Below, one piece after another: positions 4,086 through 41,677 of a DNA stretch of 64,000 nucleotides. Position numbers and translations under genes: made by a program. Source of the DNA: an uncultured Gammaproteobacteria bacterium (GTDB lineage: Bacteria; Patescibacteriota; Microgenomatia; Levybacterales; UBA12049); the NCBI GenBank assembly GCA_964391315.1, contig CAYMJR010000005.1, forward strand, positions 1,890 through 65,889. Reading direction: 5' to 3'. Position 1 is the stretch's first letter. Each line of letters opens with the position of its first letter. The notes beneath the pieces are model-generated. The model searched no databases. It was not told the DNA's origin and saw only the letters and a list, made by a program, of their open reading frames with translations.

Positions 4086-4691
4086 ATGGAACAACAAGAT
4101 TATAATCAAACTCCTCCTAAAAAGTCCAGTAGTATAAAACATATTTTTCGTTTTTTGCCCCCCGTAATCTTTTTTGGTCTGATTACGTTTCTAATTATGG
4201 AAGGAATAACCTCCAAACCAACAAATATTAGTACAAAATCACAAGCTGATCAACGAATGGCAGTTAACGCTCCTCTTTTGACAAAATCAATTAACAAATC
4301 TTTTATCTTTTCTCTGCTTGATCAAACGGGACAGGAGATGGGTAAATTTACTTATACAATAGACAGCGTTGAATTACGTAATCAAATTGTCGTAAAAGAT
4401 CAGGAAGCAACTGCAATTCAAGGAAAAAGATTTCTTGTTATCAATGTTAATTTAACTAATGCCGATAATAAGCCGATTTCTGTGAATGCAAGAGATTATC
4501 TCCGGGTAACGCTTGATAATTCACCAGAAAAATTTGCTCCCGATTTACATAGTGATCCGGTTGACGTACAAGCTATTTCTACAAAATCGACTCGTCTGGG
4601 ATTAACAATTGATGACACTGTAAAGAACATTACTCTTCAAGTAGGCGAAATAACAGGTAAAAAAGCCAGCATTTCAATCCCCCTTAACTAG
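4086..4691 (+). CDS. Membrane-anchored extracytoplasmic protein, DUF4352-like beta-sandwich
   Basis: 201 aa with an N-terminal TM (FLPPVIFFGLITFLIM). The C-terminal region KRFLVINVNLTNADNKPISVNARDYLRV resembles DUF4352 immunoglobulin-like domains. Confidence 0.45.
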   Translation: MEQQDYNQTPPKKSSSIKHIFRFLPPVIFFGLITFLIMEGITSKPTNISTKSQADQRMAVNAPLLTKSINKSFIFSLLDQTGQEMGKFTYTIDSVELRNQIVVKDQEATAIQGKRFLVINVNLTNADNKPISVNARDYLRVTLDNSPEKFAPDLHSDPVDVQAISTKSTRLGLTIDDTVKNITLQVGEITGKKASISIPLN

Positions 4692-4859
4692 GTCTCATTT
4701 TATTATAGACTCTTCAAAATAGATATTTGTATAAAAATCTTTCACAAAATTTACAATCGTCATACAAAAATATAAACGAATTTAGTTGAATATGGATAAC
4801 GCTCTCATATGACGAAGATATTTGCTACGAAACCTACAAAGAGGAAGGAGGTGAATAAA

Positions 4860-6017
4860 ATGAACTACAAAAAAAGTTTTGCTACAGTGGTAGCAACCGG
4901 AGCAATTGTCCTTAACGCATTAGCTCCTATTGCATTTGCAAGTGACACAACAGTGAGTGGAAATGGAGCATTTTCTAATACAGAAGCAAATGTTTCTACA
5001 GGTAGTAATACATCTGTAACTCAAAACAATAATGCAAACGTTTCCAATAACGTTAACTCAAATGCATCATCAGGAAATAATGATGCAAGTTTTAATACTG
5101 GCGGAAATAGTAGTATCAGTACAGGAAATGCTTCCAATGGTACTTCAGTCAGTAATAACGTAAATTCCAATACTGCGACGGTGAACACTTCCGGCAGCGG
5201 TAGTAATGGAGCAAGCGTTAACGTTTCTGGTAATGGTGCGTTTTCAAACAATAAGGTATCAGCACCCACTGGGTCAAATACCACTGTATCTCAAAACAAT
5301 AACGAAAACGTTACTAATAACGTTAATTCAAATGCATCATCAGGGAATAACAGTGCAGGGAATAATACAGGGGGCAGTACAGGAATTAACACTGGAAGTG
5401 CCTCAACTGGTGTCTCTGTTAGTACTAGCGCCAATAGAAATGTCGCAAGTGTTACAGGAGGCAATGGAGCTTCAGATGGCTCAAATGTAAATGTCTCCGG
5501 TAATGGTGCATTTAGTAATAATGCCATTCAGATTAGTAACCAATCATCAAGTACTGTTAATCAAAACAATAATGCAAATGTAACAAATAACATTAATTCA
5601 AATGCATCATCAGGGAATAACAGTGCAGGGTTTAATACCGGTGGCAGTTCAGGAATCAATACAGGAAGTGCAAACACAAGTGTAGATGTCAGTAATAGCG
5701 TTAATTTTAACACCGCTGATATCAGTAGTGGAAACTTCACTGGAGCAACCAATCTAACAATTTCCGGAAACGGTGCTGACTCTCTCAACAGAGTTATGGC
5801 CGATGGCTCGAGCAATAACTGGTTTGCTCAAAACAACATGGCAGACTTGCATAATGACGTAAATAATAATACGTCAAGTGGCAATAATGCTTCCACTTTT
5901 GGTACTGGAAACTGGGGAGCAGGCATGTTCATCTCAGCAGGTAGTGCCAGCACAGGAGCATCTATTAGCAATAACGCTAATGCAAATTCTGCAGGTCAAG
6001 GTGTAATGCTTGAATGA
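4860..6017 (+). CDS. Secreted Asn/Ser/Gly/Thr-rich repeat protein (4 tandem ~90-aa SGNGA-type units)
   Basis: The track ORF begins at 4809, but the ATG at 4860 is preceded by AAGGAGGTG (GGAGG at 4847-4851, 8-nt spacing). That start yields the signal peptide MNYKKSFATVVATGAIVLNALAPIAFA. The body is four units starting (V/I)SGNGA(F/D)S. Confidence 0.8.
   Translation: MNYKKSFATVVATGAIVLNALAPIAFASDTTVSGNGAFSNTEANVSTGSNTSVTQNNNANVSNNVNSNASSGNNDASFNTGGNSSISTGNASNGTSVSNNVNSNTATVNTSGSGSNGASVNVSGNGAFSNNKVSAPTGSNTTVSQNNNENVTNNVNSNASSGNNSAGNNTGGSTGINTGSASTGVSVSTSANRNVASVTGGNGASDGSNVNVSGNGAFSNNAIQISNQSSSTVNQNNNANVTNNINSNASSGNNSAGFNTGGSSGINTGSANTSVDVSNSVNFNTADISSGNFTGATNLTISGNGADSLNRVMADGSSNNWFAQNNMADLHNDVNNNTSSGNNASTFGTGNWGAGMFISAGSASTGASISNNANANSAGQGVMLE
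4953..6014 (+). repeat. Four in-frame tandem coding repeats, period ~270 nt
   Basis: Unit starts at 4953, 5223, 5493 and 5760 (VSGNGAFSN x3, then ISGNGADSL). Each unit contains QNNNANV(S/T)NN(V/I)NSNASSGNN..FNTGG...(I)(S/N)TG(N/S)A. The three similar antisense shadow ORFs (LFPDDAFELTLL) reflect the same periodicity. Confidence 0.9.
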
Positions 6018-6056
6018 TATGAGAGTAAAGAAACTTTCATCTCAAAATAAGTAATT

Positions 6057-6109
6057 TTGTAGGATAGTGGTGTCTTTCTTAAGATCACGGAAAGGCACCC
6101 TACCTACAA
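6057..6109 (+). terminator. Long imperfect hairpin between the two repeat-protein genes (terminator/attenuator-like, no U tract)
   Basis: Hand pairing: 6057-6078 (ttgtaggatagtggtgtctttc) pairs with 6090-6109 (gaaaggcaccctacctacaa). About 20 bp with two 1-nt bulges and one G-U pair, 11-nt loop. Followed by A-rich sequence rather than U-rich. Confidence 0.4.
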
Positions 6110-6164
6110 ATAAGAATTAAGATTTAGGATTAAAGATTTAAGAATAAAAAAATTTAAGAGATGT

Positions 6165-8291
6165 ATGAAAAGAAAATTTAAAAAATATTTATCAATACTC
6201 GTAGTTATAGCTATTTTGTTAATCCAGACAACACCAATACATGTTTTAGCAGATGATGGTTCTACAACTTCCTCTTCATCAGATCAATCAACTCAGCCAG
6301 CAGATCCTTCACCATCTCCTGACTCCCCACAAAATGTAACACCTACACAAAATGTAACACCTACACAAAGTGTATCTGACCCGTCTGTAACACCTGATCA
6401 GGATCAGTCACATCATCTTTCAGGTCAAGATCGTGAAGCATATCGTGCTGCCGCTAAAGCAGCATTTGAACAGTCACAATTACATCCTACTCCTTCACTA
6501 ACGACCAGTAATAATGGTGCAGATTCAAAAAATAATTCATCAGCAAATACAACAGATTCCACTAATAACAATCAAACAAACACCGCACAAGTTGGTAACA
6601 ATATCAATCAATCATCAGATACAGGCAAAAATACATCATCCTACAATGTTGGAAATTCTACACTCAAAACAGGTGATGCCAATGTCTCAGGTACTGCAAT
6701 TACCGGTGTAAATTCCAATCTCAGTAATGTATCTGTTTCAGAATTTACTGTTGTAGATACACAAAAAGGAGATCTTGTTCTCTCTCCTAATGCGTTTGCA
6801 GCAAATTGTATTTCTGGATGTGGAACATCCACGTCAACGAGTGGTAATGGTGCAGATTCCACAAATAATTCTAATTCATCAAATACAACAAATTCCAATT
6901 CATCACAAACGAATTCTGCCAACATTGGAAATAATCTTACTCTTTCTGCAAATACTGGGGATAACACGGCCAGTTTTAATACGAATGGTGATACAACAAT
7001 TACAACAGGTAATGCCAATGTCTCAGCAAATTCTTTGACGTTTGCAAATAATAATATTGCTGGAGGAGTGACATTTGGTGTTGTGAATATTTATGGAAAT
7101 TTACAAGGAGATATTGTGTTACCAGATTTTGGATCTGCTGGAACATCATCGAGTAGTTCTATGACTAGTGGAAATGGTACCAGTTCAACAAATACTAATT
7201 CGGCAAATACAACCACTAATACTGCTATTGGACAGAACAACGATGCTACTATTGTCAATAATGTTATTGTTGGAGGTGGAACTGGCAACAATAGTTCTAG
7301 CGGTAATACTGATGGTAATACCACTATCAATACCGGCAAAGCAACAACGGATACCAGCATTCTCAATATCGCAAATTCTAACATTAGTGATGGTACGATG
7401 TGGTTGGTACTTGTTAATCAGGCAGGTAATTGGGTTGGGCAGCTACTGGGTGCGCCGGATGGATCAAAAATTGCTGGATCTCCCGGAACGCAGTTTTCAA
7501 CAGAATCAAACGGACAAATCACTGCGACTAATGGTTTGGTAAGTTCTTCATCAACTCAATCTGGTAATGGGGCTAATTCCAATAATTCATCAAATGTTTC
7601 TAGTTCAGAAAATAACAATAACATACAAAATAATAATGCAACAATAACAAACACACTTAATTTGTCTGCAAACACCGGTGGCAATCAAACAAACTACAAC
7701 ACAGGTGAAAATACCATCATCAACACAGGTGATTCAAAAATCGTCGCAAATCTCATAAATTTTGCAAATAATAATATTTCATCAACCGGTAGATTGGTTG
7801 TCACAGTTATAAATGTTTTTGGTTCTTGGGTTGGTGATTTGGTAACGCCTGGACACCAAAAGCAAAACCAAACAGCATCAAATAACAATAGTTCTACTCC
7901 ATCAACATCTTCTTCTTCTTCTTCTTCTTCAAATAATAATGCTACAAATGCAACAAATCTCTCTAGTACTACAAACACAACTCCCACCCCTACTCCAACA
8001 AGTACGATGGAGACAACAACAAATACTGTTTCATCAAATTTTAGTACAAAAGGTCAAACACAAACAGAAACTGCACAAACTGGTTTAGGTGATGGAAATG
8101 GACAAGTAGCAGCTGCCACAAATATTTCCGATGATAATGGAGGAATGCAATTGGTGGCAGGAGAACACAAAAAAGTTATCACTATTAATTTAGCATGGTT
8201 TTTGTTACTCGTTCCACTACTTGTTTATATTGGAATAAAAAAACGACACAAGCTTCTTAAAATACTGAAAGAAATAAGAAAAATTTACTAG
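6165..8291 (+). CDS. Large surface protein: signal peptide, P/S/T/Q-rich region, four ~110-130-aa SGNGA-type repeats, S/T/N/P stalk, C-terminal TM anchor
   Basis: 708 aa. Signal MKRKFKKYLSILVVIAILLIQTTPIHVLA. Repeat starts are SNNGADS, TSGNGADS, TSGNGTSS and QSGNGANS. Each unit ends in a hydrophobic strand such as GGVTFGVVNIYGNLQGDIVLP or GRLVVTVINVFGSWVGDLVTP. The C-terminus is LAWFLLLVPLLVYIGIKKRHK. Confidence 0.8.
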   Translation: MKRKFKKYLSILVVIAILLIQTTPIHVLADDGSTTSSSSDQSTQPADPSPSPDSPQNVTPTQNVTPTQSVSDPSVTPDQDQSHHLSGQDREAYRAAAKAAFEQSQLHPTPSLTTSNNGADSKNNSSANTTDSTNNNQTNTAQVGNNINQSSDTGKNTSSYNVGNSTLKTGDANVSGTAITGVNSNLSNVSVSEFTVVDTQKGDLVLSPNAFAANCISGCGTSTSTSGNGADSTNNSNSSNTTNSNSSQTNSANIGNNLTLSANTGDNTASFNTNGDTTITTGNANVSANSLTFANNNIAGGVTFGVVNIYGNLQGDIVLPDFGSAGTSSSSSMTSGNGTSSTNTNSANTTTNTAIGQNNDATIVNNVIVGGGTGNNSSSGNTDGNTTINTGKATTDTSILNIANSNISDGTMWLVLVNQAGNWVGQLLGAPDGSKIAGSPGTQFSTESNGQITATNGLVSSSSTQSGNGANSNNSSNVSSSENNNNIQNNNATITNTLNLSANTGGNQTNYNTGENTIINTGDSKIVANLINFANNNISSTGRLVVTVINVFGSWVGDLVTPGHQKQNQTASNNNSSTPSTSSSSSSSSNNNATNATNLSSTTNTTPTPTPTSTMETTTNTVSSNFSTKGQTQTETAQTGLGDGNGQVAAATNISDDNGGMQLVAGEHKKVITINLAWFLLLVPLLVYIGIKKRHKLLKILKEIRKIY
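6507..7853 (+). repeat. Four in-frame tandem coding repeats, period ~330-390 nt, same family as 4953-6014
   Basis: Unit starts at 6507, 6840, 7167 and 7560. Core shared with the upstream gene: SGNGA.S.N...N.A.(I/V).N.(L/V)...A.TG.N...(F/Y)NT.G.T.I.TG.A. Confidence 0.8.
7908..7930 (+). repeat. (TCT)n trinucleotide microsatellite encoding poly-Ser
   Basis: tcttcttcttcttcttcttcttc, about 7.7 units, encodes SSSSSSSS in the stalk of the 708-aa protein. Confidence 0.9.
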
Positions 8292-9008
8292 TTATTTTCC
8301 TGTTCCTGGAGGAATCATCCGATATGAGTCGCTAAATCGTAATCGAACCGCATGTGATCCAATTTGCCAACTGGCTTTGAGGATATTAATTTTTTCTTTT
8401 CCATACAGGCGTTTTTCAAACAAAATATCAACAGCCGAAACCTTATATCCTAAGTCTACATTTTTCCGAAGTAATTCCATATCGAACGTCCATGGTGAAA
8501 GAGATGATGTTAATCCGACAAGACATTCCTTTTTAAAAAGTTTGAGACCTGATTGTACATCAAAATCAAATCCGTGAAGTACCTTTGCAAAAAGATACAT
8601 GAATCCCCTACTGAAAATTTTTCTTGTAAGTGATGTATTGGCAACTTTTCTATTTGTAACAACAATATCGGCACCTTTTTTTATCTTGGCAAGCATTTTA
8701 GGAATTGCTTCAGGAGGATATTGCAAATCTGCATCAATCATGCAAAGTAGTCCATATTTTGCATGACCGAATCCTTCAAAAAGTGATTGTGTTTTCCCTT
8801 TTTTTCCTTTTTTGAGATGGAGGCTTATTGGGAATTTACTCCTCAAACTTCGAATAATAGTTCTCGTTTTATCTGTTGAGTGATCATCAATAAAAATTAT
8901 TTGATAAATAATTTTTTTTGGAGAAAGTGCACTATGTATCCTTTTTACGAGAGGACGAATACTGTTTTCTTCATTGAGTGTTGGTACTATAATTGAAAGT
9001 GAATGCAT
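8292..9008 (-). CDS. GT2 glycosyltransferase, polyprenyl-phosphate sugar synthase-like (DPM1/GtrB/CsbB type)
   Basis: 238 aa. SIIVPTLNEENSI, IIFIDDHSTDKT and MIDADLQYPPEAIP (DxD region). Short soluble GT-A without TM helices. Last gene of the minus-strand operon 15358-8292. Confidence 0.65.
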   Translation of the reverse strand: MHSLSIIVPTLNEENSIRPLVKRIHSALSPKKIIYQIIFIDDHSTDKTRTIIRSLRSKFPISLHLKKGKKGKTQSLFEGFGHAKYGLLCMIDADLQYPPEAIPKMLAKIKKGADIVVTNRKVANTSLTRKIFSRGFMYLFAKVLHGFDFDVQSGLKLFKKECLVGLTSSLSPWTFDMELLRKNVDLGYKVSAVDILFEKRLYGKEKINILKASWQIGSHAVRLRFSDSYRMIPPGTGK

Positions 9009-9071
9009 AGTATAAAGATTATAGAGTGATAAGTATATCCCACTTCAAATGTGTTTTTTATCAAAAGTTTG

Positions 9072-11009
9072 TTAGAGATTTGTATTATGATATAGCGTAT
9101 ACAGAAAAAGCGAGTGCGGTGTATTTGTCTCAGGTTTGTTTACTTGATCTTTAAGTTTAAGTGCTTTTTCCGGTTGATAGAAAGAAGTAAACAAAACAAA
9201 CAGATCTCCCCAGTCATCACTGATGTCTCCTCCATGTTGAGAGAAATCATTCTCGAAATTTGTAAAATTTCCAAGTGTTCCAAGATAGGAAAACGATCCA
9301 GGTGTTATGGGAAGAATTTGAATGCCATATTTCATATTAGTTTTTCCGCTAAACCAGGTCGAAAAATCGATTTTTCCTCCCCAGATAATTGATCCGATTG
9401 CATGATTGTATGACTGGGTATACTCGCCATTTTTTCCAAACCAATAATATCGTGTTCCCTGAATTTCTGTGTTATATAAATACAGTGCTGTTTTTTCCAA
9501 TTGTTTATTATTTGCCACCTTTGCCCAGAGATATATCCCATACCATGCATTAATCGCTTCAGAAGATGACTCTTGATCGTTTCCATCGCCAAAATTTGCA
9601 AATCCGTCAGCATAGGAATGTCCTTCATAGATATTAAAGTTTCTTAGAAATGGAAACATGCTGCTCTTTCGATCAATGTATGCAATATCTTCAATGAGTA
9701 GATTAATTTTATTTTCAACAACGTTTTTGTAGGATGGATCCACACTTACGAGAATAGCAGCAGTTCGGATATAGTAGCCATAGTGGAAGTGATGATCATT
9801 CAATTTTTCATTACCAAATTCAGGTTGGTCTGCAATAACACTTTGTAGATTTTTTTGATAAGTAAAATAAGTAAGGCTTTGTGAAAACCGGGGTTTGAGA
9901 TATGCAAGTAATTCTTGCTTTTCTTTTTGCAGACTAGCGGCATCAAGAAGAAGTAAAACATTTGCTGCTTTTCCATACCATGTTCCTAAGAAGTAATCAC
10001 CTTTTGTCGGTTGATTGTCAGTCAGAAGTTTTTGTTGATCTTGTTTTACAGCAGTAATAAAATCAGGATGGTTTTGTTTTAAAGAAGTAAATCTCTGTTC
10101 AGGAACAATAAGAGGAAGTTGGGTCGTAAATGATGGTATGTTGACTAGACGCAGTGCACCTCTGATTGTTTGATAATTTCCAAGGACTTTCGGTCTTTTA
10201 GTCAGCGAATCATATTGATGCGGAAAAAGAGTAATAAGAGGGTTTGTATTATTTCCAATAAATTGATAGGTAGTAATTAATTGATTATTTTTTATGTCCC
10301 AATTGACACGAGTATTTGTTATTTCGGAATTTGCATGATTTTTAAAAAGAGCGAAATTATAAGGAGATGTTAACAGACCGATAAAGATTCGGTTTGTAGG
10401 GATCTGTATTTCATTTGATGAAAGAGTGATTAATTGCTTTTGGGAAAGAACAACAATATAGTTGTGATTATTGATAAGTAACCGAAACGTATCTGTCGTA
10501 CTATGTGTATCATTTATTTGTGTTGTCCCTTGATTGTAAAAGACATAGGGATGTTGTAATCGAATAATCAGTTGCTTGTTATTTGTATGAATAACTGTCC
10601 ATGGTGCACCTTGCACGAGAGTAAAACGAAGAAATGTATTATAATTATTCATAACGAGCCCCACACTCCAATCCCCTTTTGTTTCAATCTGAGGTTTTGT
10701 TACTGCGCTGGGTAATCCTACAGCAAGATCTTCATCATAACTTCCGAAAATCGTATCTGATGATTTTACGACTGTAGGATATGACATACCAAGTCCATTT
10801 GCGCTCAAGCGATACGCAAGAGGAAACGCAAATATCGGTTGCGTAGGAAATGTTGTGTAGATATTGCTGTACCACTGATTCGATGCAATAGGAGTTGGTG
10901 ACGATGAGCTGTGTTGATCATTCGCACCATCTACAGTATGCACGAAAAAATACACAACACCTAAAAGAATTAAGCAAATGATTGATAAAAGCAACAAATA
11001 ATGTTTCAC
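9072..11009 (-). CDS. GH81-like endo-beta-1,3-glucanase, N-terminally membrane-anchored
   Basis: 645 aa with signal anchor MKHYLLLLSIICLILLGVVYFF. Carries the family-81 hallmarks NDHHFHYGYYIRTAA and QESSSEAINAW (ExxxE catalytic pair spacing). Confidence 0.65.
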   Translation of the reverse strand: MKHYLLLLSIICLILLGVVYFFVHTVDGANDQHSSSSPTPIASNQWYSNIYTTFPTQPIFAFPLAYRLSANGLGMSYPTVVKSSDTIFGSYDEDLAVGLPSAVTKPQIETKGDWSVGLVMNNYNTFLRFTLVQGAPWTVIHTNNKQLIIRLQHPYVFYNQGTTQINDTHSTTDTFRLLINNHNYIVVLSQKQLITLSSNEIQIPTNRIFIGLLTSPYNFALFKNHANSEITNTRVNWDIKNNQLITTYQFIGNNTNPLITLFPHQYDSLTKRPKVLGNYQTIRGALRLVNIPSFTTQLPLIVPEQRFTSLKQNHPDFITAVKQDQQKLLTDNQPTKGDYFLGTWYGKAANVLLLLDAASLQKEKQELLAYLKPRFSQSLTYFTYQKNLQSVIADQPEFGNEKLNDHHFHYGYYIRTAAILVSVDPSYKNVVENKINLLIEDIAYIDRKSSMFPFLRNFNIYEGHSYADGFANFGDGNDQESSSEAINAWYGIYLWAKVANNKQLEKTALYLYNTEIQGTRYYWFGKNGEYTQSYNHAIGSIIWGGKIDFSTWFSGKTNMKYGIQILPITPGSFSYLGTLGNFTNFENDFSQHGGDISDDWGDLFVLFTSFYQPEKALKLKDQVNKPETNTPHSLFLYTLYHNTNL

Positions 11010-11026
11010 GTTTTAAAGATTTTTAG

Positions 11027-11797
11027 TTACTGTTTTGCGAGAAGTCCATTCCAGAAATCTGTAAAGACAGCAATCGGCTTGTCGGTTTGGTCAGCGTCAT
11101 TCAAGCTGATTTGTAAATCCTCATTATTTAACAATGCAGCTGCTTGATCATTATTTTTGAAAGTAAAATACATACCAATCTTTTTCTCTGCAACAGTTGT
11201 CGGCGTATTCTCATTTTCCATAAGAAGACCAGGAACAATAACAAAATTTTGATTAAGTCGTGAACTGTATGCATTGATAGCAGATAGTTTTTGTATTGCT
11301 TGATATTGTGCTGCTGTTAATTCCGCCTGCAATCTTATGTCAGAAGATGAATAAATAGTCATCACTTTTGAAAATTCATCTATTGATGATCCTTCTGATG
11401 CATAGACATCGCCAACAACTCCATCAACAGGAGCTTTGATTGTGAGACTATCAAGACTTATTTTTGCAATACTTGCTTGTTGCTGTGCTGATTGATTAGT
11501 ATACGCACTTTCCTTATAAATTTTATAGTTGTTTTCAAGGATTGGATTGGACATCTTAACCAAAATGTCACCTTTTTTTACTATTTGTCCGTTTTTAACA
11601 TTTATGTGATCGATAATACCGCGAGTAAGTGTCAAAATAGTCACCTTTTGCTTTACAACAGAACCGCCAAGATTATTAATAAACATTTTTGATTCATTTA
11701 CTTTCCTTGTTAAAGCAATTGTCGAAATTGCTAATGCAAGAGCAATGACAAAAACAAAATAAAAAAGATTAATAAAAAAGATAAAAACATTTCTCAT
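11027..11797 (-). CDS. HlyD-like membrane-fusion/adaptor protein
   Basis: 256 aa with an N-terminal TM. Biotinyl-lipoyl-like hairpin halves GIIDHINVKNGQIVKKGDILVKM and IKAPVDGVVGDVYASEGS. Its start lies 1 nt after the stop of the upstream synthase gene. Confidence 0.6.
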   Translation of the reverse strand: MRNVFIFFINLFYFVFVIALALAISTIALTRKVNESKMFINNLGGSVVKQKVTILTLTRGIIDHINVKNGQIVKKGDILVKMSNPILENNYKIYKESAYTNQSAQQQASIAKISLDSLTIKAPVDGVVGDVYASEGSSIDEFSKVMTIYSSSDIRLQAELTAAQYQAIQKLSAINAYSSRLNQNFVIVPGLLMENENTPTTVAEKKIGMYFTFKNNDQAAALLNNEDLQISLNDADQTDKPIAVFTDFWNGLLAKQ

Positions 11798-11798
11798 A

Positions 11799-13283
11799 TT
11801 ATTTTGCTAATTCACCTCCGTTCTTAATGAATAAAAATAAAAATCCTGCATTAACGAGTACCCAAATAGTTGTGGCAATTGTTGTATAGACATCAAATTC
11901 GTTATACCAACCAACAGGTATTGCGAAAAGAGAAAGTGCAATGATAAAAACATGCGGCCAAACATCATTTGCAATAAATGCAAGTTGTGTATTTTTTGAT
12001 TCTGTGGCAACCCAATTATAATTATTATGTGTAATCACAGCAAAGAAGGCATTAAGATATGGAGCAAAGCTTGCAAGTGATGTACTGATTGTCGAGAGTC
12101 TGAGATTTCCCAATAAGAAAAATGGTAAAAAATACACGGTAATAAAAAATGGAATATAGTGAATTAGCCAGTCATGACTTTGTTTTACATTAAGAGGAAG
12201 AGTGCCAAATAATAAATAGACAAGTGGAAGGAAAATGTAAATAAGTATTGCAAATCCGCTGAAATAATGAATGTTGGAAAAAAAGTACTGCAATTTTTGG
12301 TCAATGGTGAGATTTTTTAAGAAAAGTGGATTATGGGTAAAAAAGAGTGAGAATCCTCCCATCGCCCATCGATTTTGTTGTCTAAAAAATGTAGCGATTG
12401 TTTCAGGTGCACGGCCCTCGGCAAGAATGTTATTATAGAAAATTGATTCATATCCTTTCTCATGAAGCAAAATTGTTGTCCAAATATCTTCAGAATGAGT
12501 ATATCGTGCAATGCCGCCAATCGCATCAATTGCAGATCTTCTATAAATCATATTAGTTCCTACACAAAATGAAGAATTGTAACTGTTTTTTGCTGGTTGA
12601 ATATATTTATAAAATAGTTCCTGAGCTTGTGCTGTTCCTGATGCGATGAAGTTATTATTATTTATAAAATGTTGCGGCGTCTGAACGAGTGCGATGGTAT
12701 TATTTTGAAAAAATGGAAGAAGTTCTGTGAGGAAATGTTTTTTCGGTGCGTGATCGGCGTCAAACACAGCAAAAAATTCTCCATTAGATTGCGAAAGACC
12801 GTAATTTAAATTGCCAGATTTTGCAAACTGTTTTTCTTTTCTTTGAAGATAAATAGCATTAATTTTTTGTGCTAATTCCCGCAGCTTTTCGGAATCCCCA
12901 TCATCAAGAATATAGATTTTCTTGTTTTCATAATCCATTTCAAAAGCTTTCATTATTGTCGCTGAGACAATATCAAATGGTTCATTGGCTGTTGGGATAA
13001 GAATATCAACAGTCGGGTTGTATTCTTTCAACCACTGTTCACGATAGCTTAATTCCCGTTTGTGATATTCGGGTTGCAAAAGATCCAATAAAATCGTCAA
13101 CCATAATGATCCGACAACAAAAATAGCGATGATATCCGCAAAAACAAGTAATGGATAAAGATAGACATTACCTATATGTGCAGGGTTAAACACATACGAT
13201 GCATAATACACGATTGCAAGAGGTGCTAAGAGAACAAAAAGTAATGCAGTATTTGGTATTGGTTTTATTTTAGTAATTTTCAT
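11799..13283 (-). CDS. Processive GT2 beta-glucan synthase-like enzyme (BcsA/CrdS-like core, no PilZ domain)
   Basis: 494 aa. TM helices flank a GT-A domain with ILDDGD, FDADH, HSEDIWTTILLHEKGY (TED-like motif) and RQQNRWAMGG (QxxRW). The C-terminal multi-TM channel-like region ends without a PilZ module. Confidence 0.7.
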   Translation of the reverse strand: MKITKIKPIPNTALLFVLLAPLAIVYYASYVFNPAHIGNVYLYPLLVFADIIAIFVVGSLWLTILLDLLQPEYHKRELSYREQWLKEYNPTVDILIPTANEPFDIVSATIMKAFEMDYENKKIYILDDGDSEKLRELAQKINAIYLQRKEKQFAKSGNLNYGLSQSNGEFFAVFDADHAPKKHFLTELLPFFQNNTIALVQTPQHFINNNNFIASGTAQAQELFYKYIQPAKNSYNSSFCVGTNMIYRRSAIDAIGGIARYTHSEDIWTTILLHEKGYESIFYNNILAEGRAPETIATFFRQQNRWAMGGFSLFFTHNPLFLKNLTIDQKLQYFFSNIHYFSGFAILIYIFLPLVYLLFGTLPLNVKQSHDWLIHYIPFFITVYFLPFFLLGNLRLSTISTSLASFAPYLNAFFAVITHNNYNWVATESKNTQLAFIANDVWPHVFIIALSLFAIPVGWYNEFDVYTTIATTIWVLVNAGFLFLFIKNGGELAK

Positions 13284-15358
13284 CTATGTATAAAATGTTT
13301 TAAAAACTTACGCTGAACTTGCAATGCCATCTGGAAGGATGGTTTCAAAACACCACGAGGGCGCTTTACAAGTTCGAGATGACGAAAAACAATTTCTTTT
13401 TTGTTTAAGATAAATGGACCAAAGCCTATGACTAGTGGTACTGTGATAACAATAAAAAGAAGAAGATAATAATAGAGAGGCCAGGTATGGTACAGAATGA
13501 GCTTTCCACCGTCATTTTGATTGGCAAGTGTAACAAGCATAAAATTTGGTCCTACTGATGTAATTGATTGTTTTTCTCCCTTAAAATACGCTTGCCATTC
13601 TTGATCAAAGCTTTCATTGATGAGAACAAAAGAGCTTGTTCTTTTAGTAGGAATTGAAAGAGCAAGAGATTCTTCTGTCGGGTACGTGACAAACAATGGA
13701 TTGTTTGATGGATCATAGACCATCGTTGAAAATTCCTTGACCTTATTATCAAGAGCTACCTGATCGGGAACCAGATCAAATTGCATGTTTGTTGGAAATG
13801 TTATCAGGTCGTCTCTATATTTGTTTGAAACAAGCACTGCATTCCGAGCGGTCCAAGGGGTTTCAAATGCTTCATAAATACCACTTGGTGTCACAACTTG
13901 TCCGAGATGCTTATAGCCAGATTTTTTATCAAGTAACGCTTGTACAAAAGAAGAATCTTCATCGAAAAAGACATATTGTATTCCTGCTAACATAAAATAA
14001 TTATCAATTCTTGAGATATCAGATGATGGAATTTGATTTAAAAAAGGTTGATAAGTTATTAACTGATTAAGCCGTTCAGGCAAATGGTTTGATTCAAGTT
14101 GTGCCATGTAGGAAGTTGGAAAATGAAGAGAATATGTTGCTCCATAATAGCTTGAGAGATCAATTGTAGGTGTCCAAATCCTGCCTTCAGTATTGTCAAT
14201 TTTTTTCTGCTGCATAAAGCTGGTTACTGGATCACTTATATTTTTATGTACACTAGGGGAATAGTTACTTGTTATCCATGTTCCTTCCACAAATGTTATG
14301 GTAACTGCAGTAACAAGAAGTCCACGGAAAAAAAGAGAATTTGTTTTTTGCACCTGTTCAACAAACGGTAAAGCAGCAAAGATGATGCAAATACCAAGTA
14401 ACCCAACTCCTCGTGTATATTGAAATTGGTTAATAAAGTTCGGCAACGATACATGCGTACCGATATAAATAAGTGAGAAATATGCAAAGACATACAGGGT
14501 GAGTATTTTGCCCCATCGGTAAACAGAAGAAATTGGAAAGAACTGCTGTACGAATCCAATAAAGAAATAAATCAGTAAAATAAAACTTAATCCATAATAA
14601 GGAAAAGGGGCAAGTGCTAATTGCAGGAATTCTTTCGTTGCGATGTAGACAGTTGAGTTGGTATAAGAATCTTTAAATGCAACCGGAACCCAGAAAAAAG
14701 AAGATGCTGCAAGAAAAACCAAACATTGTAAAAGTGTTCGAAGTGAGAAAAGTTGTGAATCTTCAATAAGTTTGGCAACGCCCCAGAGCGAAATACTTAT
14801 TAATCCGAAGACTGGGTGAATATAAAACATCAGCCCTGCAATATATGGATAGATCCATTGGAATTTGCCTTCCAAATATTTCACCCAGAGCAAAAGAATA
14901 ATTGGAAAAAATGAAAAAGAAAAAAGAAGCGTATAATCTCCTACCGCTTTCCAAAAATATGCGATAGAAAATGTTGCAAGGGCTGCAACAAGTGCCGTAA
15001 ACGGAGAGAATTTCAACAGTCGTGCAACAATATAGGTAATAATCCGTAGGAAAATAAATTGTGCAATTACCATGACAATCATTGCCCGGGTTATTTCCAA
15101 GCGAAAGATATCTGCAACGGCGAGCGTTATTAGATGAGGTACTATTTGGTATGATTTCCAGAGGTTAATCCCATTGGACCAGGTATGTGTCCATGAGGTA
15201 ATTCCATGTAACTGAATTTCTCTGATACGAAAAGCTTGCACCATCCAGTCTGGATACGTGACATTGATATTTTCTGCTGGCAGATAAAATGAAATAAGAA
15301 AAACAGAGAGTCCAATAATAAGAGAGATAAAAACGAGATCCAATAAAATTATTTTCAT
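13280..15358 (-). CDS. Large polytopic membrane protein with extracytoplasmic C-terminal domain and terminal TM (GT-C/YfhO-like topology)
   Basis: 692 aa. About 12 hydrophobic helices in the first 370 aa, a ~270-aa soluble region, and a last helix YYYLLLFIVITVPLVIGFGPFIL. Its 4-nt overlap with the synthase gene suggests translational coupling. Family assignment rests on topology only. Confidence 0.4.
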   Translation of the reverse strand: MKIILLDLVFISLIIGLSVFLISFYLPAENINVTYPDWMVQAFRIREIQLHGITSWTHTWSNGINLWKSYQIVPHLITLAVADIFRLEITRAMIVMVIAQFIFLRIITYIVARLLKFSPFTALVAALATFSIAYFWKAVGDYTLLFSFSFFPIILLLWVKYLEGKFQWIYPYIAGLMFYIHPVFGLISISLWGVAKLIEDSQLFSLRTLLQCLVFLAASSFFWVPVAFKDSYTNSTVYIATKEFLQLALAPFPYYGLSFILLIYFFIGFVQQFFPISSVYRWGKILTLYVFAYFSLIYIGTHVSLPNFINQFQYTRGVGLLGICIIFAALPFVEQVQKTNSLFFRGLLVTAVTITFVEGTWITSNYSPSVHKNISDPVTSFMQQKKIDNTEGRIWTPTIDLSSYYGATYSLHFPTSYMAQLESNHLPERLNQLITYQPFLNQIPSSDISRIDNYFMLAGIQYVFFDEDSSFVQALLDKKSGYKHLGQVVTPSGIYEAFETPWTARNAVLVSNKYRDDLITFPTNMQFDLVPDQVALDNKVKEFSTMVYDPSNNPLFVTYPTEESLALSIPTKRTSSFVLINESFDQEWQAYFKGEKQSITSVGPNFMLVTLANQNDGGKLILYHTWPLYYYLLLFIVITVPLVIGFGPFILNKKEIVFRHLELVKRPRGVLKPSFQMALQVQRKFLKHFIHR

Positions 15359-15442: not shown

Positions 15443-16048
15443 TTATCTGGAGAAAGGTAGTGCGATAATAACAAATCTTTGTAAATCGGCAAAGCCATCA
15501 CAGGTGTAAAGAATAAGTGTCTCACCTTTTTGCTGTGTAAAGATATCCATTTTATTGGGAGCAACGGTCATCGTTTGACGGATAATATAGTTGTATGTCT
15601 TATGATCGGCAGTGTTGATTTCAATAGTATCCCCTTTTGAAAGCCAGCGGATTGGGCCTAGTCTGTCATTAGTATTGTGACCATACATAATAATTGGCCC
15701 ATTTTCTCCAGGTCTCGCTGAGACAGTTAGATGGGATACACCATTTTCAGCAATTTGCCAGACACCATTATTGATAGCTGTTTCTTCTAGTGGTAAATCA
15801 ATTCTGACTTTTTTGATAATGAGTTCCGTTGGGATTGCATGGATTTTCTTGACCGGTATGACATGTGGAGTAAAGAATGCAAGTTGGATTGTTTGATTCA
15901 AATGCCAAAAAAGTGAAATAAACAGAAATAATAATCCAAAAATAAAGAGTGCTTTTGTACGAAAGGTTAGATTGGTAAACTTTTTTAAGAATGAGCTTAA
16001 AATATTTTCCTTTTTTGCAGGTTTAGATAACTTTCTTTTCTTTGGCAT
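15443..16048 (-). CDS. Sortase-family transpeptidase
   Basis: 201 aa with an N-terminal anchor. Catalytic His in IIMYGHN, Cys in TLILYTCDG (TLxTC) and Arg in LQRFVIIA. Confidence 0.8.
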   Translation of the reverse strand: MPKKRKLSKPAKKENILSSFLKKFTNLTFRTKALFIFGLLFLFISLFWHLNQTIQLAFFTPHVIPVKKIHAIPTELIIKKVRIDLPLEETAINNGVWQIAENGVSHLTVSARPGENGPIIMYGHNTNDRLGPIRWLSKGDTIEINTADHKTYNYIIRQTMTVAPNKMDIFTQQKGETLILYTCDGFADLQRFVIIALPFSR

Positions 16049-16544
16049 ATGAGATGTACCCTGCCAGTATCAACATCATACCAAATATTATGAAGAGTTT
16101 CATGAGATTTCGTATATAGTTGCCTGCGGGAGCCATCGTTGACGCACTAAGCACTTGACCTGGCGGAGTAGTTTGATTGGATGACTGTGCATTTTGTGTT
16201 GCAGCTGTGCTATTACTATTACTATTACTATTACTATTACTGTTTGGTTGAGGAGTTGCAGAGGCTGCCGGAACTAAGGTGAGAATAGAAGCTACCGATG
16301 AGGTGGGTGTTGGTGTTTGATTAAGGATAGAAATTATTTCAGTTGGTGTTGGGGTACAGGTGGGATTTTCTGAGGGTGTGGGGGTGGGTGTGGGAGTACA
16401 GCTAAGGCTTGGAGTTTGTGTTAGCGTTGGTGTCGTATCTTCTCCTTCTGAGGCGAAAGCAACGGAGTGAGCAATGCATACCATGAAGATGATTGCAAAG
16501 AGTTGTATCACAATTGTAGATAACCGTTTTATGTCTTGTAGCAT
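16023..16544 (-). CDS. Thr/Pro-rich surface protein with C-terminal sorting-signal-like tail
   Basis: 173 aa with a signal peptide ending VAFA. Contains TPTPTPTPS tracts and an NSNSNSNSNSNS run. The tail is GQVLSASTMAPAGNYIRNLMKLFIIFGMMLILAGYISYAKEKKVI (motif, TM, basic end). Overlaps the sortase gene start by 26 nt. Confidence 0.7.
   Translation of the reverse strand: MLQDIKRLSTIVIQLFAIIFMVCIAHSVAFASEGEDTTPTLTQTPSLSCTPTPTPTPSENPTCTPTPTEIISILNQTPTPTSSVASILTLVPAASATPQPNSNSNSNSNSNSTAATQNAQSSNQTTPPGQVLSASTMAPAGNYIRNLMKLFIIFGMMLILAGYISYAKEKKVI
16212..16241 (-). repeat. (AGTAAT)5 hexanucleotide microsatellite encoding (Ser-Asn)n
   Basis: attact x5 on the plus strand, in frame within the surface-protein gene. 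Confidence 0.9.
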
Positions 16545-16641
16545 GTCTAGCAGTTTTAGACAGTGTAGGATGTTTTATAGCCATAAGTCAAGCTCAGCGC
16601 TATTGTAGGTAAAAATGGAGTTTTACAGTGGGATATGCAGC

Positions 16642-17733
16642 CTATATAGATGAGATTTGTCTTTTTTCTTTTGTAAATGACACGTATCCTGCAAGGAGCA
16701 AGACCATACCAAGAATTGTGTAGATTTTCATAAGTGTCGTTGAGAAGGTCCCTGTTGCTGCCATAGTTGATGCACCAAGAACTTGTGTTTCTGATTTATT
16801 AATAGTTGCGATTTCTCCCCCACCACATCCGATGCGTTGTCGTACTCCAAAGGTATAGTCAAGGTTTGGATTAAGACTGCCAATTTTGGTAGAGACAAAT
16901 TTATCTGCGTTTGGCTTAAGCCCTGTTACTGAATATTGCCAATCGGAAGCATTTCTCTGTTTGTAGAAAATATCTGCTGTGTCACCGTCAGTAATAAAGA
17001 AACTGATTGTTGCTTTATCTGCATTTCTCGCAATTTGTATATTTGCAGGAACGTTTGTTGTATTACGGTCTGAGCAAACAGGAGCTTTTGCTGTTGATGA
17101 TTGTGTCTCACCAGGTGTTGGTGTCTGTGCAAAAGGAGGTATATTACTTCCTGTTTTATATCTGTTAACAATCACGAGCATTCTTGTTGGTCTGTCAGCA
17201 TTCAAAATAATGTGGCCATCAGCATTCATATTGCGTGCACCATCATTTGATGGATCTCCATCGAAAAGGCGGTTGTCATAGGAATATAGACTAACAACGT
17301 TAGTTACTGGTCCAGTGTATTGATCGGAATAAAAAGGAGCATCCCATCCTGTTCCTGGATTTGACTCTTCAGCATAATAATAGCTTCCAAGTGGTAAATT
17401 ATCATATGTAACGCAATCAGCATCATTTCCAGGGATCCCTCCAAGTATGTCTGTATTGTAGGTAAGAGGTGTTGTAAAGGTAGTTGTTGGTAAAACACCG
17501 GCTGGTATACCTTGTGAGGTTACAGGATTTGGTGTGAATCCACTTATAGAAAATGTAGCTCCAGGTCTATCTGAACCTGTGACAACATTATTATTTTCGT
17601 CAACAACAATTTTACAAACACTAATAGCTCCTGTTTGTCCGGAGCTTGCTAAAGTAGATTTTGCAGGCATGAGAAAAACGGATACAAAAGATACCAGCAA
17701 TGTTACGAAAAAAGTAAAAAACTTAAATTTCAT
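16642..17733 (-). CDS. Surface protein (Ig-like/Cna-B-like N-domain, Fn3-like C-domain) with C-terminal sorting-signal-like tail
   Basis: 363 aa. Signal peptide MKFKFFTFFVTLLVSFVSVFLMPAKSTLA. ISVCKIVVDENNNVVTGSD is typical of prealbumin-like surface folds. The tail is TQVLGASTMAATGTFSTTLMKIYTILGMVLLLAGYVSFTKEKRQ. Confidence 0.7.
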   Translation of the reverse strand: MKFKFFTFFVTLLVSFVSVFLMPAKSTLASSGQTGAISVCKIVVDENNNVVTGSDRPGATFSISGFTPNPVTSQGIPAGVLPTTTFTTPLTYNTDILGGIPGNDADCVTYDNLPLGSYYYAEESNPGTGWDAPFYSDQYTGPVTNVVSLYSYDNRLFDGDPSNDGARNMNADGHIILNADRPTRMLVIVNRYKTGSNIPPFAQTPTPGETQSSTAKAPVCSDRNTTNVPANIQIARNADKATISFFITDGDTADIFYKQRNASDWQYSVTGLKPNADKFVSTKIGSLNPNLDYTFGVRQRIGCGGGEIATINKSETQVLGASTMAATGTFSTTLMKIYTILGMVLLLAGYVSFTKEKRQISSI

Positions 17734-40561: not shown

Positions 40562-41071
40562 ATGAAAAAACTATCTCTTGCTATTTTATCACTTATTGTC
40601 ATTTTTATGGCTTCTGCAACGCCAGCATTGGCTGTTACAACGCCTGATTTTGGTTCATGTCAAAATCCTCAAATTGCAGCTTCACAAGTTAATTATGGAA
40701 GTTACCATGGTGTTGTTGGTAAAACCCAAACATATTCAGGAAAAGATACTATTTATGAGCTTTCTAATGGAAACGTAACCCAATGTCTTTGTCCAGACAG
40801 TGGTACAGGTATTCAAACCAATTGGTATAAAGTTTCTGGTCTCTCAGAAAATGATATTCATGTCTTAGAGAAACAAGGCTGGACATATGTTGTTACAGGC
40901 TCTTCTTGGGGTCTTGAAGATGTCCCTTATTTGGCAAAAAATATCGATTACACATGTCATGGAGAACAGGTTCTTGCAGCGACAGGAACTGATAAAGCAA
41001 TTTTTGGCCTCATCCTTGCTGGAGTTTTCTCACTCGGTGCAGGATTACTCTTCAAAAAGTTTAGTAAATAA
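40562..41071 (+). CDS. Small Cys-containing surface protein with LAxTG-type sorting signal
   Basis: 169 aa with signal peptide ...ASATPALA. The tail is EQVLAATGTDKAIFGLILAGVFSLGAGLLFKKFSK (LAATG + TM + basic end). Confidence 0.75.
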   Translation: MKKLSLAILSLIVIFMASATPALAVTTPDFGSCQNPQIAASQVNYGSYHGVVGKTQTYSGKDTIYELSNGNVTQCLCPDSGTGIQTNWYKVSGLSENDIHVLEKQGWTYVVTGSSWGLEDVPYLAKNIDYTCHGEQVLAATGTDKAIFGLILAGVFSLGAGLLFKKFSK

Positions 41072-41080
41072 ACTTTGTTT

Positions 41081-41677
41081 ATGAAAATCTTTTCTTATAT
41101 TTTCATCATTTGTGGTATTTTGTGGTGCTTTTTAGGAGGATATTATCTTTGGTTAGAAAATGATCCAAATAGATTGCAGCCTAAAACAGTAGAGGTAAAA
41201 AATATTTCTGTGAAGGCGATAACGAATCCTGACGATACGAAACAAAATGATGGTACGCCGCAAACGATTACTATCGAAGACCTACGGATTAATCTTCCCA
41301 TAATTCCTGCAAAAGTTGTAAATGATACCTGGGAAACAACCTTTTATGGTGCCTCCTACCTGACGTCCTCACCTATTCCTGGCAATAAAGGAAATAGTGT
41401 CATTTATGCACATAACTGGGTAAGTCTTTTTGGTCGGCTGAAACAAGCTAAACCAGGACAACAAATAACTATTGCTTTTTCCAATGGGACAAAAAAAGTG
41501 TTTATTATTAAAAATACAAAAATTGTTGACCAGAACGATTCATCAATTGTTGATCAAACAAAAGACACACGAATTACGCTCTACACCTGTACAGGTTTTT
41601 TTGATCAACAACGGTTTGTTGTCATTGCAACTCCAGAAAGTAACAAACCTTCTTTCGCTGAAATCCAGACTAACTAA
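41081..41677 (+). CDS. Sortase-family transpeptidase
   Basis: About 198 aa. The ATG at 41081 is preferred over the TTG at 41075. N-terminal anchor, then His in VIYAHNW, Cys in ITLYTCTG and Arg in QQRFVVIA. Confidence 0.8.
   Translation: MKIFSYIFIICGILWCFLGGYYLWLENDPNRLQPKTVEVKNISVKAITNPDDTKQNDGTPQTITIEDLRINLPIIPAKVVNDTWETTFYGASYLTSSPIPGNKGNSVIYAHNWVSLFGRLKQAKPGQQITIAFSNGTKKVFIIKNTKIVDQNDSSIVDQTKDTRITLYTCTGFFDQQRFVVIATPESNKPSFAEIQTN

Follow-up and report, generated by a model that had tools for sequence, protein, structure and literature searches.

The analysed stretch (the window) comprises 64,000 nucleotides of contig CAYMJR010000005.1 in assembly GCA_964391315.1, from an uncultured bacterium placed by GTDB in the Microgenomatia of the Patescibacteriota. 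Two co-directional open reading frames (ORFs), at 4809/4860-6017 (gene A) and 6165-8291 (gene B) in the ORF listing, encode a secreted protein and its membrane-anchored paralog, both assembled from units of one repeat that opens with the motif SGNGA. The start of gene A was fixed at the ATG at 4860 because an AGGAGG box sits 8 nt upstream. A membrane-protein gene, U, precedes A, and an RNA hairpin lies between A and B. The coordinates of these features are collected in Table 1.

Table 1. Features of the A/B locus in the window (aa, amino-acid residues; TM, transmembrane; HMM, hidden Markov model; pLDDT, predicted local distance difference test).
Feature	Position	Strand	Description
Gene U	4086..4691	+	201-aa single-pass membrane protein upstream of A; weak DUF4352-like extracytoplasmic beta-sandwich
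Shine-Dalgarno box of A	4846..4851	+	AGGAGG, strong
Gene A	4860..6017	+	secreted, 385 aa; signal peptide and four SGNGA units
A signal peptide (aa 1-27)	4860..4940	+	Sec-type, ends IAFA/S (MNYKKSFATVVATGAIVLNALAPIAFA/S)
A unit 1 (aa 33-122)	4956..5225	+	unit HMM E 3e-23; unit alignment
A unit 2 (aa 123-212)	5226..5495	+	unit HMM E 2e-24
A unit 3 (aa 213-301)	5496..5762	+	unit HMM E 2e-25
A unit 4 (aa 302-385)	5763..6014	+	divergent final unit; unit HMM E 4e-25
RNA hairpin	6056..6110	+	~22 bp, immediately 3' of gene A
Gene B	6165..8291	+	membrane-anchored paralog of A, 708 aa
B unit 1 (aa 115-225)	6507..6839	+	unit HMM E 2e-30; invariant Cys pair C215/C219
B unit 2 (aa 226-334)	6840..7166	+	unit HMM E 4e-35; core pLDDT 81-94
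B unit 3 (aa 335-465)	7167..7559	+	unit HMM E 5e-34
B unit 4 (aa 466-575)	7560..7889	+	unit HMM E 2e-35
B stalk (aa 576-665)	7890..8159	+	S/T/N/P-rich by composition; predicted disordered; pLDDT <50 over aa 572-670
B C-terminal anchor	8187..8288	+	INLAW box (N675-W678), TM helix aa 676-691, basic tail aa 692-708
Sortase	15443..16048	-	Pfam Sortase E 3.8e-17; L001 cluster sortase E 2e-12; closest window homolog of the cluster sortase

Protein A consists of its signal peptide and four units, whose SGNGA motifs open at residues 33, 123, 213 and 302, and holds nothing more. The mature form (34.6 kDa) has an isoelectric point (pI) of 4.05 and no Cys. Asn, Ser, Gly and Thr account for 64% of the composition of A, and the mature proteins contain many N-x-S/T sequons, 25 (A) and 40 (B). 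The protein ends in ...AGQGVMLE without a TM helix and lacks the C-terminal tail of ~25 residues (L.LPG[DN]W...FDL..L) carried by most orthologs, which end in this non-LPXTG sequence; no frameshifted remnant of the tail was found downstream of the stop codon. Protein B is organised into a signal peptide (residues 1-29), a P/S/T/Q linker (30-86), a helix (87-104), four units starting at residues 115, 226, 335 and 466, a stalk and a TM helix. Its units are longer than those of A, and each one ends with an additional hydrophobic strand pair (for example GVVNIYGNLQGDIVLP). The stalk is a candidate wall-spanning spacer. In the anchor, N675 is invariant and L676, A677, W678 and P684 are kept in at least 90% of sequences; an NLAW/NLAY/NIAW box was present on B in 79 of 82 loci, and AlphaFold places a helix at residues 676-707. 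A nearly invariant box, K-x-[IV]-x-[IV]-N-L-A-W, marks the outer edge of the TM helix. The N-terminal linker contains QNVTPT repeats encoded by an 18-nt tandem repeat (6328-6374, + strand; 2.6 copies, 96% identical), a low-complexity spacer that expanded recently.

The relationship between the two proteins was supported by several comparisons. Pairwise identity among the units ranges from 26 to 63%, and a unit HMM recovered every A and B unit at E ~1e-23 to 1e-35; it matched none of the remaining ORFs of the 64-kb window. When the HMM was built from B units only, A scored +102.5 bits, compared with -58 for the best of 300 shuffled versions of A, and the reverse test gave +74.4 bits for the real sequence and -85.6 for the shuffled ones. 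An A-B alignment was also obtained by BLASTP with composition correction (E 7e-10). Both proteins follow the family pattern of four units after a signal peptide, SGNGA.S.N ... Q.N.A.V.N ... TG.N.A..NTGG ... I.TG.A ... N.N. At the DNA level, Tandem Repeats Finder (TRF) detected no array with a period of ~270 nt, which indicates that the unit duplication is old and rules out a recent tandem expansion. An earlier note, drawn from the letters of the window alone, had described two neighbouring exported proteins of one repeat family, the 385-aa protein being four ~90-aa units only and the 708-aa neighbour adding a hydrophobic strand to each of four longer units, an S/T/N/P stalk and a C-terminal TM anchor. 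The unit boundaries, the unit HMM, the shuffle test and the BLASTP alignment bear this description out.

Relatives of both proteins are numerous. Among the matches listed there are more than 400 for B and nearly 200 for A, all annotated as "hypothetical", and all informative organism names belong to the Microgenomates/Patescibacteria (Levy-, Davies-, Ames-, Gottesman-, Woese-, Chisholm- and Roizmanbacteria). An exhaustive profile search with the eight units of the window, a search that the earlier note had proposed, returned 3,385 representatives of 50%-identity clusters at E<=1e-3, with 730 at E<=1e-30. A scan of GTDB genome contigs, in which the full-length B alignment served as the query, found a B relative in 203 GTDB species genomes. 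The A and B families appear to be confined to Microgenomates and widespread there.

Unit number was compared in sets of 120 homologs each (A, P0121-P0240; B, P0001-P0120). Four units were found in 113 of the 120 A orthologs, while 97 B orthologs have four units and the other 23 have four plus a degenerate extra unit at the N-terminus. Across species, B units with the same index are 0.52-0.63 identical, compared with 0.38-0.49 for units of different index. Since same-index units of different species outmatch different units within one protein, the four-unit plan of B is ancient. Within each A protein, units 1-3 have been homogenised, which points to concerted evolution. The fixed unit number and the positional identity of the B units therefore indicate a defined architecture rather than an adhesin stalk of variable length. 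In most A orthologs, and in the C paralogs introduced below (e.g. L016, 7667-8902), Cys pairs (CGC, CxC or CxxxC) were observed exactly at the unit boundaries.

AlphaFold2 models of the monomers, built with alignments of 72-76 sequences, are all-beta for both proteins. The A model has a mean pLDDT of 67 and a predicted template-modelling score of 0.65. In the B model, the four unit cores reach a pLDDT of ~85-93, and the linkers, the stalk and the SGNGA segments fall below 50. Residue coevolution was analysed separately by mean-field direct coupling analysis (DCA) on 994 units cut from 242 proteins, using all units (effective number of sequences, Meff, 834), B units only (Meff 430) and A units with an extension into the following unit (Meff 302). 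The strongest couplings line up as an antiparallel ladder (i+j = 96-98) that includes the column pairs (13,85), (29,69), (35,63) and (44,52). Each unit is thus modelled as a single, very long beta-hairpin of antiparallel strands, whose arms measure ~30-35 residues and whose tip is (F/Y)NTGG. The SGNGA motif forms the turn of a second hairpin, which joins the last short strand of one unit to the first strand of the next, and among the couplings in A the pair across this turn (85,97) ranks second in strength. The strands specific to B form a meander (e/f sum ~148, f/g sum ~175). These pairings match the secondary structure in the AlphaFold models. Couplings with a period of 86 in A were set aside because the A units are homogenised and concerted evolution confounds them.

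Two alternatives bear directly on this fold. One holds that A and B form a hydrated, mostly unstructured, mucin-like coat of low complexity, whose function would come from bulk composition or glycosylation. The Asn/Ser/Gly/Thr content of A, the many sequons and the predicted disorder of the stalk and linkers of B point that way, but 32 columns are invariant in an alignment of 76 A sequences, shuffled sequences score far below real ones, and the confident unit cores are accompanied by a clear coevolution ladder. This alternative is already disfavoured and we consider it very improbable. The earlier note had named a purely disordered sequence as the outcome that would overturn its proposal; instead, the unit cores of B have pLDDT values of 85-93, and strand pairings are reproduced independently by coevolution. 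In the second alternative, A would be a beta-barrel pore-former or membrane-inserting needle directed against a host cell, with the long amphipathic hairpins forming a transmembrane barrel. Each unit does provide such a hairpin, the eight strands of four hairpins could close a barrel, and bacteria belonging to the Candidate Phyla Radiation (CPR) must obtain metabolites from other cells. One face of the hairpin carries small hydrophobic residues (Val, Ala, Ile) and the other Asn, Ser and Thr; even the apolar face is interspersed with Asn and poorly suited to lipid. No pore-forming toxin fold or family was matched in Pfam or by Foldseek, and paralogs anchored to the membrane and wall of the producing cell are not expected of a toxin, so that a pore-forming role is hardly credible.

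The coevolution data also suggest a candidate interface between the hairpin tip and the SGNGA turn. In all three DCA sets, column 6 (the residue after SGNGA) is coupled to column 46 (the residue before NTGG), and the residue pairs involved (Phe, Gly or Leu with Phe; Asp with Lys or Arg) are physically and chemically sensible. The association peaks at the same unit index, with an odds ratio of 5.5 in A and 2.8 in B, compared with 1.4-4.5 at other offsets. No motif of the family is better conserved than SGNGA, but this segment has the lowest confidence in both monomer models (pLDDT <50). Low model confidence combined with high conservation is typical of segments that become ordered only in a complex. 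As turn and tip lie at opposite ends of a hairpin of ~30 residues, their contact requires either that the hairpin folds back or that hairpins stack end to end in register. Fold-back of the tip onto the turn is not seen in the continuous strands of the AlphaFold models, and the coupling would fit in-register head-to-tail stacking of molecules. Tip-to-turn polymerisation is proposed because of this covariation together with the conservation and low confidence of SGNGA.

Searches for a known family or fold gave no relevant match. In a Pfam scan at E<=1, A had no match and B only a spurious one to New_glue; in NCBIfam, A again had none and B only noise below threshold. Single-sequence phmmer searches and profile searches with the alignments of 72-76 sequences, run against all PDB sequences, were equally negative. 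Foldseek found nothing at E<0.05 when the models of A and B were compared with the PDB (top-ranked matches E>=0.2) or when the model of B was compared with the viral structures of BFVD. Pfam contained no match to the chaplin domain (PF03777), WxL (PF13731), DUF916, Cna-B or Ig-like pilin domains, or any lectin or carbohydrate-binding module (CBM) family. An SLH (PF00395) or other known S-layer anchoring domain was not detected in the Pfam and NCBIfam scans, and a regular-expression scan of the window ORFs found no LPXTG in A or B. The earlier note had failed to recognise the repeat as a named domain and had foreseen that a match to a well-described adhesin or S-layer family could refute its proposal; the sequence searches and the structural comparison of both models agree with the former and produced no instance of the latter.

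A further claim of that note, a beta-solenoid-like fold, is not supported by the models or the couplings. The ladder is antiparallel (i+j = 96-98) and does not correspond to parallel in-register stacking, and Foldseek gave no significant match to any solenoid; beta-helix entries of the PDB surface only at E>1.6 with template-modelling scores (TM-scores) of ~0.05. The same comparisons bear on a strict functional amyloid of the curli, Fap or chaplin type, in which A would be secreted unfolded and converted into cross-beta fibres on a nucleating paralog, B or C. The logic of a major subunit with an anchored paralog is known from CsgA/CsgB, FapC/FapB and the short and long chaplins, and the arrangement of A with its anchored paralogs resembles it. 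The N/S/G/T-rich composition would suit an amyloid, and FapC and CsgA are the top-ranked, though non-significant, Foldseek matches in the PDB. These matches have E-values of 0.2-2.7, and those to the CsgA structures 8c50 and 8enq reach E 0.4-5 with TM-scores <=0.08. Because their TM-scores are <=0.2 on either normalisation, the FapC, CsgA and beta-helix entries carry no weight, and the ice-binding matches were likewise not used. By sequence, there was no Curlin_rpt, chaplin or Fap match: the curlin repeat (PF07012; S-x5-Q-x-G-x-G-N-x-A-x3-Q) was absent from the Pfam results, and the PDB-sequence profile searches did not return CsgA. Coevolution and AlphaFold further point to a specific native fold built from long hairpins with antiparallel strands instead of a parallel strand-loop-strand arrangement, and the unit count is fixed at four. 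An amyloid in this strict sense is therefore quite improbable.

Because searches for chaplin, curlin, WxL, SLH and pilin domains, for LPXTG in A and B and for a solenoid fold were all negative, and the literature searched contained no paper on the family, the A/B repeat is proposed, from sequence comparison, as a new domain family. The pair itself is a variation on a known theme of surface assembly, an anchored paralog plus a free subunit.

The genomic context of A and B was examined in five loci read individually and 80 obtained through the GTDB scan, and counts refer to non-redundant loci with enough flanking sequence. The conserved order is U, DUF2292, A, B, C, sortase and often D. Gene U lies upstream of A-B, and A directly upstream of B, in 73 of 73 loci; the small, cytoplasmic-looking DUF2292 protein is present in 60 of 73. 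A C paralog follows downstream in 60 of 73 loci, 40 of which showed an LPxTG motif in C; a sortase lies downstream in 59 of 73. C usually contains three units, with Cys pairs between them, a P/G linker and a QVLGA...LP[AVIT]TG sorting signal. D, often present on the opposite strand, is a Lys-rich protein of ~200 aa with two units. The layout of a free subunit and an anchored relative, proposed in the earlier note, is thus retained and extended in relatives by an LPXTG paralog, a dedicated sortase and a two-unit fourth paralog. B orthologs also carry a (Q/K)VAG box 20-35 residues upstream of the INLAW-type box. The motif, TM helix and basic tail of B, with this QVLGA-like box, echo the LPxTG signal of C and might represent a degenerate or novel sorting signal.

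The U protein of the window matches Pfam DUF4352 (PF11611) at E 9.5e-5 with 23.1 bits, under the cut-off of 25.9 bits. Six of 16 U orthologs match at E<=0.01, and the U ortholog of one locus (L001) does so at E 2e-47; no PDB sequence relative of U was found by profile search. The window carries the minimal invariant core (U, A, the hairpin and then B, which bears the INLAW-TM box), and so does its closest relative, L003. Compared with the loci L001-L085, the cluster of the window is reduced (stretches 4692-4859 and 5990-6164).

Expression signals differ between the two genes: the Shine-Dalgarno box of B (AAGAG) is weak. The hairpin that follows A folds with a minimum free energy of -38.3 kcal/mol (z -5.05, positions 6015-6170). 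An equivalent hairpin follows A in 79 of 79 loci (median z -6.4), and 11 of 11 consensus pairs show compensatory changes. Its outer stem is conserved (GTAGGGTG/CACCCTAC). Most loci have a near-invariant GCACTTC loop, which is missing from the window and L003; across ~1 Mb of loci, 44 of 65 matches to hairpins with this loop fall in the A-B gap. No U-tract follows the hairpin, and no Rfam family matched it. A similar hairpin on the other strand was observed just upstream of A in several loci. The 3' arm (GGCACCCTAC) recurs at the end of a tRNA-Leu gene (61934), but two matches against 1.9 expected are at chance level, and a link between loss of the GCACTTC loop and absence of DUF2292 was rejected, as the two do not track each other across loci. 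The hairpin is a putative attenuator or 3'-end stabiliser. A strong Shine-Dalgarno box on a gene with a stable hairpin 3' of it is a pattern familiar from major-subunit genes. As such an element, the hairpin would raise the expression of A well above that of B, which would fit a major subunit and its anchor.

Taken together, we favour the interpretation that A and B form a self-assembling envelope layer, which may be a fibre, a sheath or an S-layer-like coat, and give it a probability of about 0.45. U-A-B would be the core of a cell-envelope assembly specific to Microgenomates. In it, the secreted, acidic, Cys-free A would be the abundant building block, and B the membrane-anchored base, presenting four homologous units above the membrane on its S/T/N stalk of ~90 aa. 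In most relatives, the three-unit C would additionally be fixed to peptidoglycan by the dedicated sortase, and U would act as an obligatory membrane partner. Hairpin tips of one molecule would dock on the SGNGA turns of the next, or on those of B or C, and this docking would build the fibre, sheath or coat. Export and anchoring are supported by the Sec-type signals on A and B and by the TM helix, basic tail and disordered stalk of B; we infer polymerisation, the excess of A over B and the location at the cell surface. The low pI and lack of Cys in mature A are S-layer-like, though not specific. A fuller version of this interpretation seems doubtful to us: U-A-B(-C-sortase-D) as a Microgenomates (OP11) surface layer or sheath of undescribed fold, made of ~10-nm beta-hairpin modules that polymerise tip to turn, tied to the membrane by B and to peptidoglycan by C, with a structured RNA setting the stoichiometry.

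Several observations weigh against an envelope layer. Only one of the five A models is good (pLDDT 67), the remaining four reaching 38-55, and the B model shows the units as isolated beads joined by linkers of low confidence. The coupling between tip and SGNGA could arise from intramolecular fold-back or from shared ancestry, as units 1-3 of A evolve in concert. The window contains no C or D paralog within 64 kb, no DUF2292 between U and A and no sortase next to A-B, and its A has lost the conserved tail. Outside corroboration is also missing, as no description of the family was found in the literature searched, which covered the family, CPR S-layers and LPXTG proteins in Patescibacteria. Finally, U, A and B are 49-54% identical to their counterparts in L003, compared with 60-72% for the flanking genes, and such faster divergence would also fit host-facing adhesins.

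This last point leads to the alternative that A and B are surface adhesins or glycan binders that do not polymerise, acting as single molecules on polysaccharides of a host cell or of the cell's own wall through their Asn/Ser/Thr-rich faces. B and C would then simply be tethered forms, and A would be shed or associated with the wall. Beyond the divergence of U, A and B, the polar strand faces would suit such a role, A and B of the window adjoin polysaccharide genes (GT2, GH81 and a cellulose-synthase-like GT2), and Microgenomates are thought to be attached to, or dependent on, other cells. CPR-enriched protein families are, moreover, mostly surface or membrane proteins (PMC6744442). However, the polysaccharide neighbours are not kept at other loci, no lectin or CBM family was matched, and the fixed unit number and tightly constrained family length are unlike those of typical repeat adhesins. 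Four paralog classes with three anchoring modes in one operon suggest a multi-part structure, and the covariation of tip and SGNGA needs an intermolecular or fold-back contact. On balance we regard single-molecule adhesins as unlikely.

Among known systems, the closest functional likeness of the proposed envelope layer would be to the chaplins, to curli/Fap, to Csc/WxL clusters and to two-component S-layers, in each of which anchored components occur together with free ones. Like the Streptomyces chaplins (ChpA-C are long and have a sortase signal, ChpD-H are short and secreted), the A/B family comprises paralogs with differing numbers of one small beta-rich domain in a monoderm organism, with an anchored base and free building blocks; one class, C with LP[AVIT]TG in relatives, is fixed to the wall by sortase and others are secreted. 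Unlike chaplins, A and B do not match the chaplin domain, their unit is a very polar (N/S/T) sequence of ~90 aa modelled as one long antiparallel hairpin instead of a hydrophobic amyloid domain of ~40 aa, and the system adds a TM-anchored B and an obligatory membrane partner U. The window itself has no sortase-anchored paralog, whereas in relatives C carries LPxTG next to a sortase. Curli (CsgA/CsgB) and Pseudomonas Fap (FapC/FapB) share with A and B a secreted N/S/G-rich major subunit of imperfect repeats and a surface-held paralog, and are their top-ranked though non-significant structural neighbours. They differ in the curlin repeat that A and B lack, in the Foldseek values (E>=0.2, TM-score <=0.2) and in strand pairing, which in A and B involves long antiparallel hairpins and not parallel beta-solenoid rungs. 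Outer-membrane secretion machinery is also absent for A and B because their organism is monoderm.

The Csc/WxL clusters of Lactobacillus and Enterococcus are operons that encode C-terminally TM-anchored, small LPXTG and secreted proteins, thought to form a wall-associated complex. The A/B cluster similarly combines the three protein types, but has no WxL or DUF916, builds all its members from one repeat family and has its own sortase. Sortase-assembled pili of Gram-positive bacteria (SpaA type) resemble it in having several related secreted structural proteins of all-beta modular build and, in most relatives, a dedicated sortase; here, however, the presumed major subunit A has neither LPXTG nor a C-terminal TM helix, only C is a sortase substrate, and Cna-B or pilin domains are missing from A and B. 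A sortase pilus was rejected, as A and B lack LPXTG. Two-component S-layers, such as those of the Sulfolobales (SlaA canopy, membrane-anchored SlaB stalk), also pair a free outer subunit with a second protein whose stalk is rich in Ser/Thr and whose C-terminus forms a TM helix, and their proteins are likewise acidic and Cys-poor. No homology to them was found; the free and anchored proteins of the present system are paralogs, A and B lack SLH and other known S-layer anchoring domains, and a lattice of A and B is putative, hinted at indirectly by the strong Shine-Dalgarno box of A, the hairpin that follows this gene, and the low pI and lack of Cys of its product.

The cell envelopes of CPR bacteria remain undefined (PMC5220378) and are among the least understood parts of the biology of these organisms. 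The analysis gives names and coordinates to a set of paralogs, syntenic across the lineage, that are secreted, membrane-anchored or wall-anchored and have in common a fold not found in the PDB or Pfam. If the envelope-layer interpretation is true, it would explain how these ultra-small cells build an outer coat, and would enlarge the protein repertoire by a new module, a beta-hairpin that self-assembles; monomeric adhesins, if that is what they are, would still constitute a new domain family that marks Microgenomates.

Other sortase and surface genes were observed in the window and in related loci. The link of the sortase at 15443-16048 to A and B is uncertain because it lies 7 kb away and beside other substrates, and the same arrangement occurs in L003. 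Two secreted proteins of 173 and 363 aa directly precede this sortase (15443-17733, - strand). Both carry QVL(S/G)ASTMA(P/A)(A/T)G at the C-terminus, ahead of a TM helix and a tail rich in K, an arrangement that looks like a variant "MAxTG" sorting signal that shares the QVLGA box with the C paralogs. A second sortase (41075-41677, + strand; region 40562-41677) comes immediately after a protein of 169 aa whose C-terminal end consists of LAATG, a TM helix and KKFSK, and the two form a separate sortase/substrate pair. The polysaccharide block beside B (8292-15358, - strand) encodes a GT2 and a further, cellulose-synthase-like GT2, a GH81 beta-1,3-glucanase-like enzyme, a protein resembling HlyD and a polytopic membrane protein of 692 aa without a Pfam match; it is syntenic in L003 and not so at other A-B loci. 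In one Daviesbacteria-like locus, a Peptidase_M73 (TasA/camelysin) gene (L005, 15921-16574, - strand) lies ~5 kb from A-B-C-sortase, which may be a coincidence. Many contigs with the cluster, including L010, L013-L015, L017 and L021, are titled "uncultured Gammaproteobacteria bacterium", and others Methylomirabilota or Rhodocyclaceae; on contigs carrying the Microgenomates cluster, such titles are probably placeholders or wrong labels.

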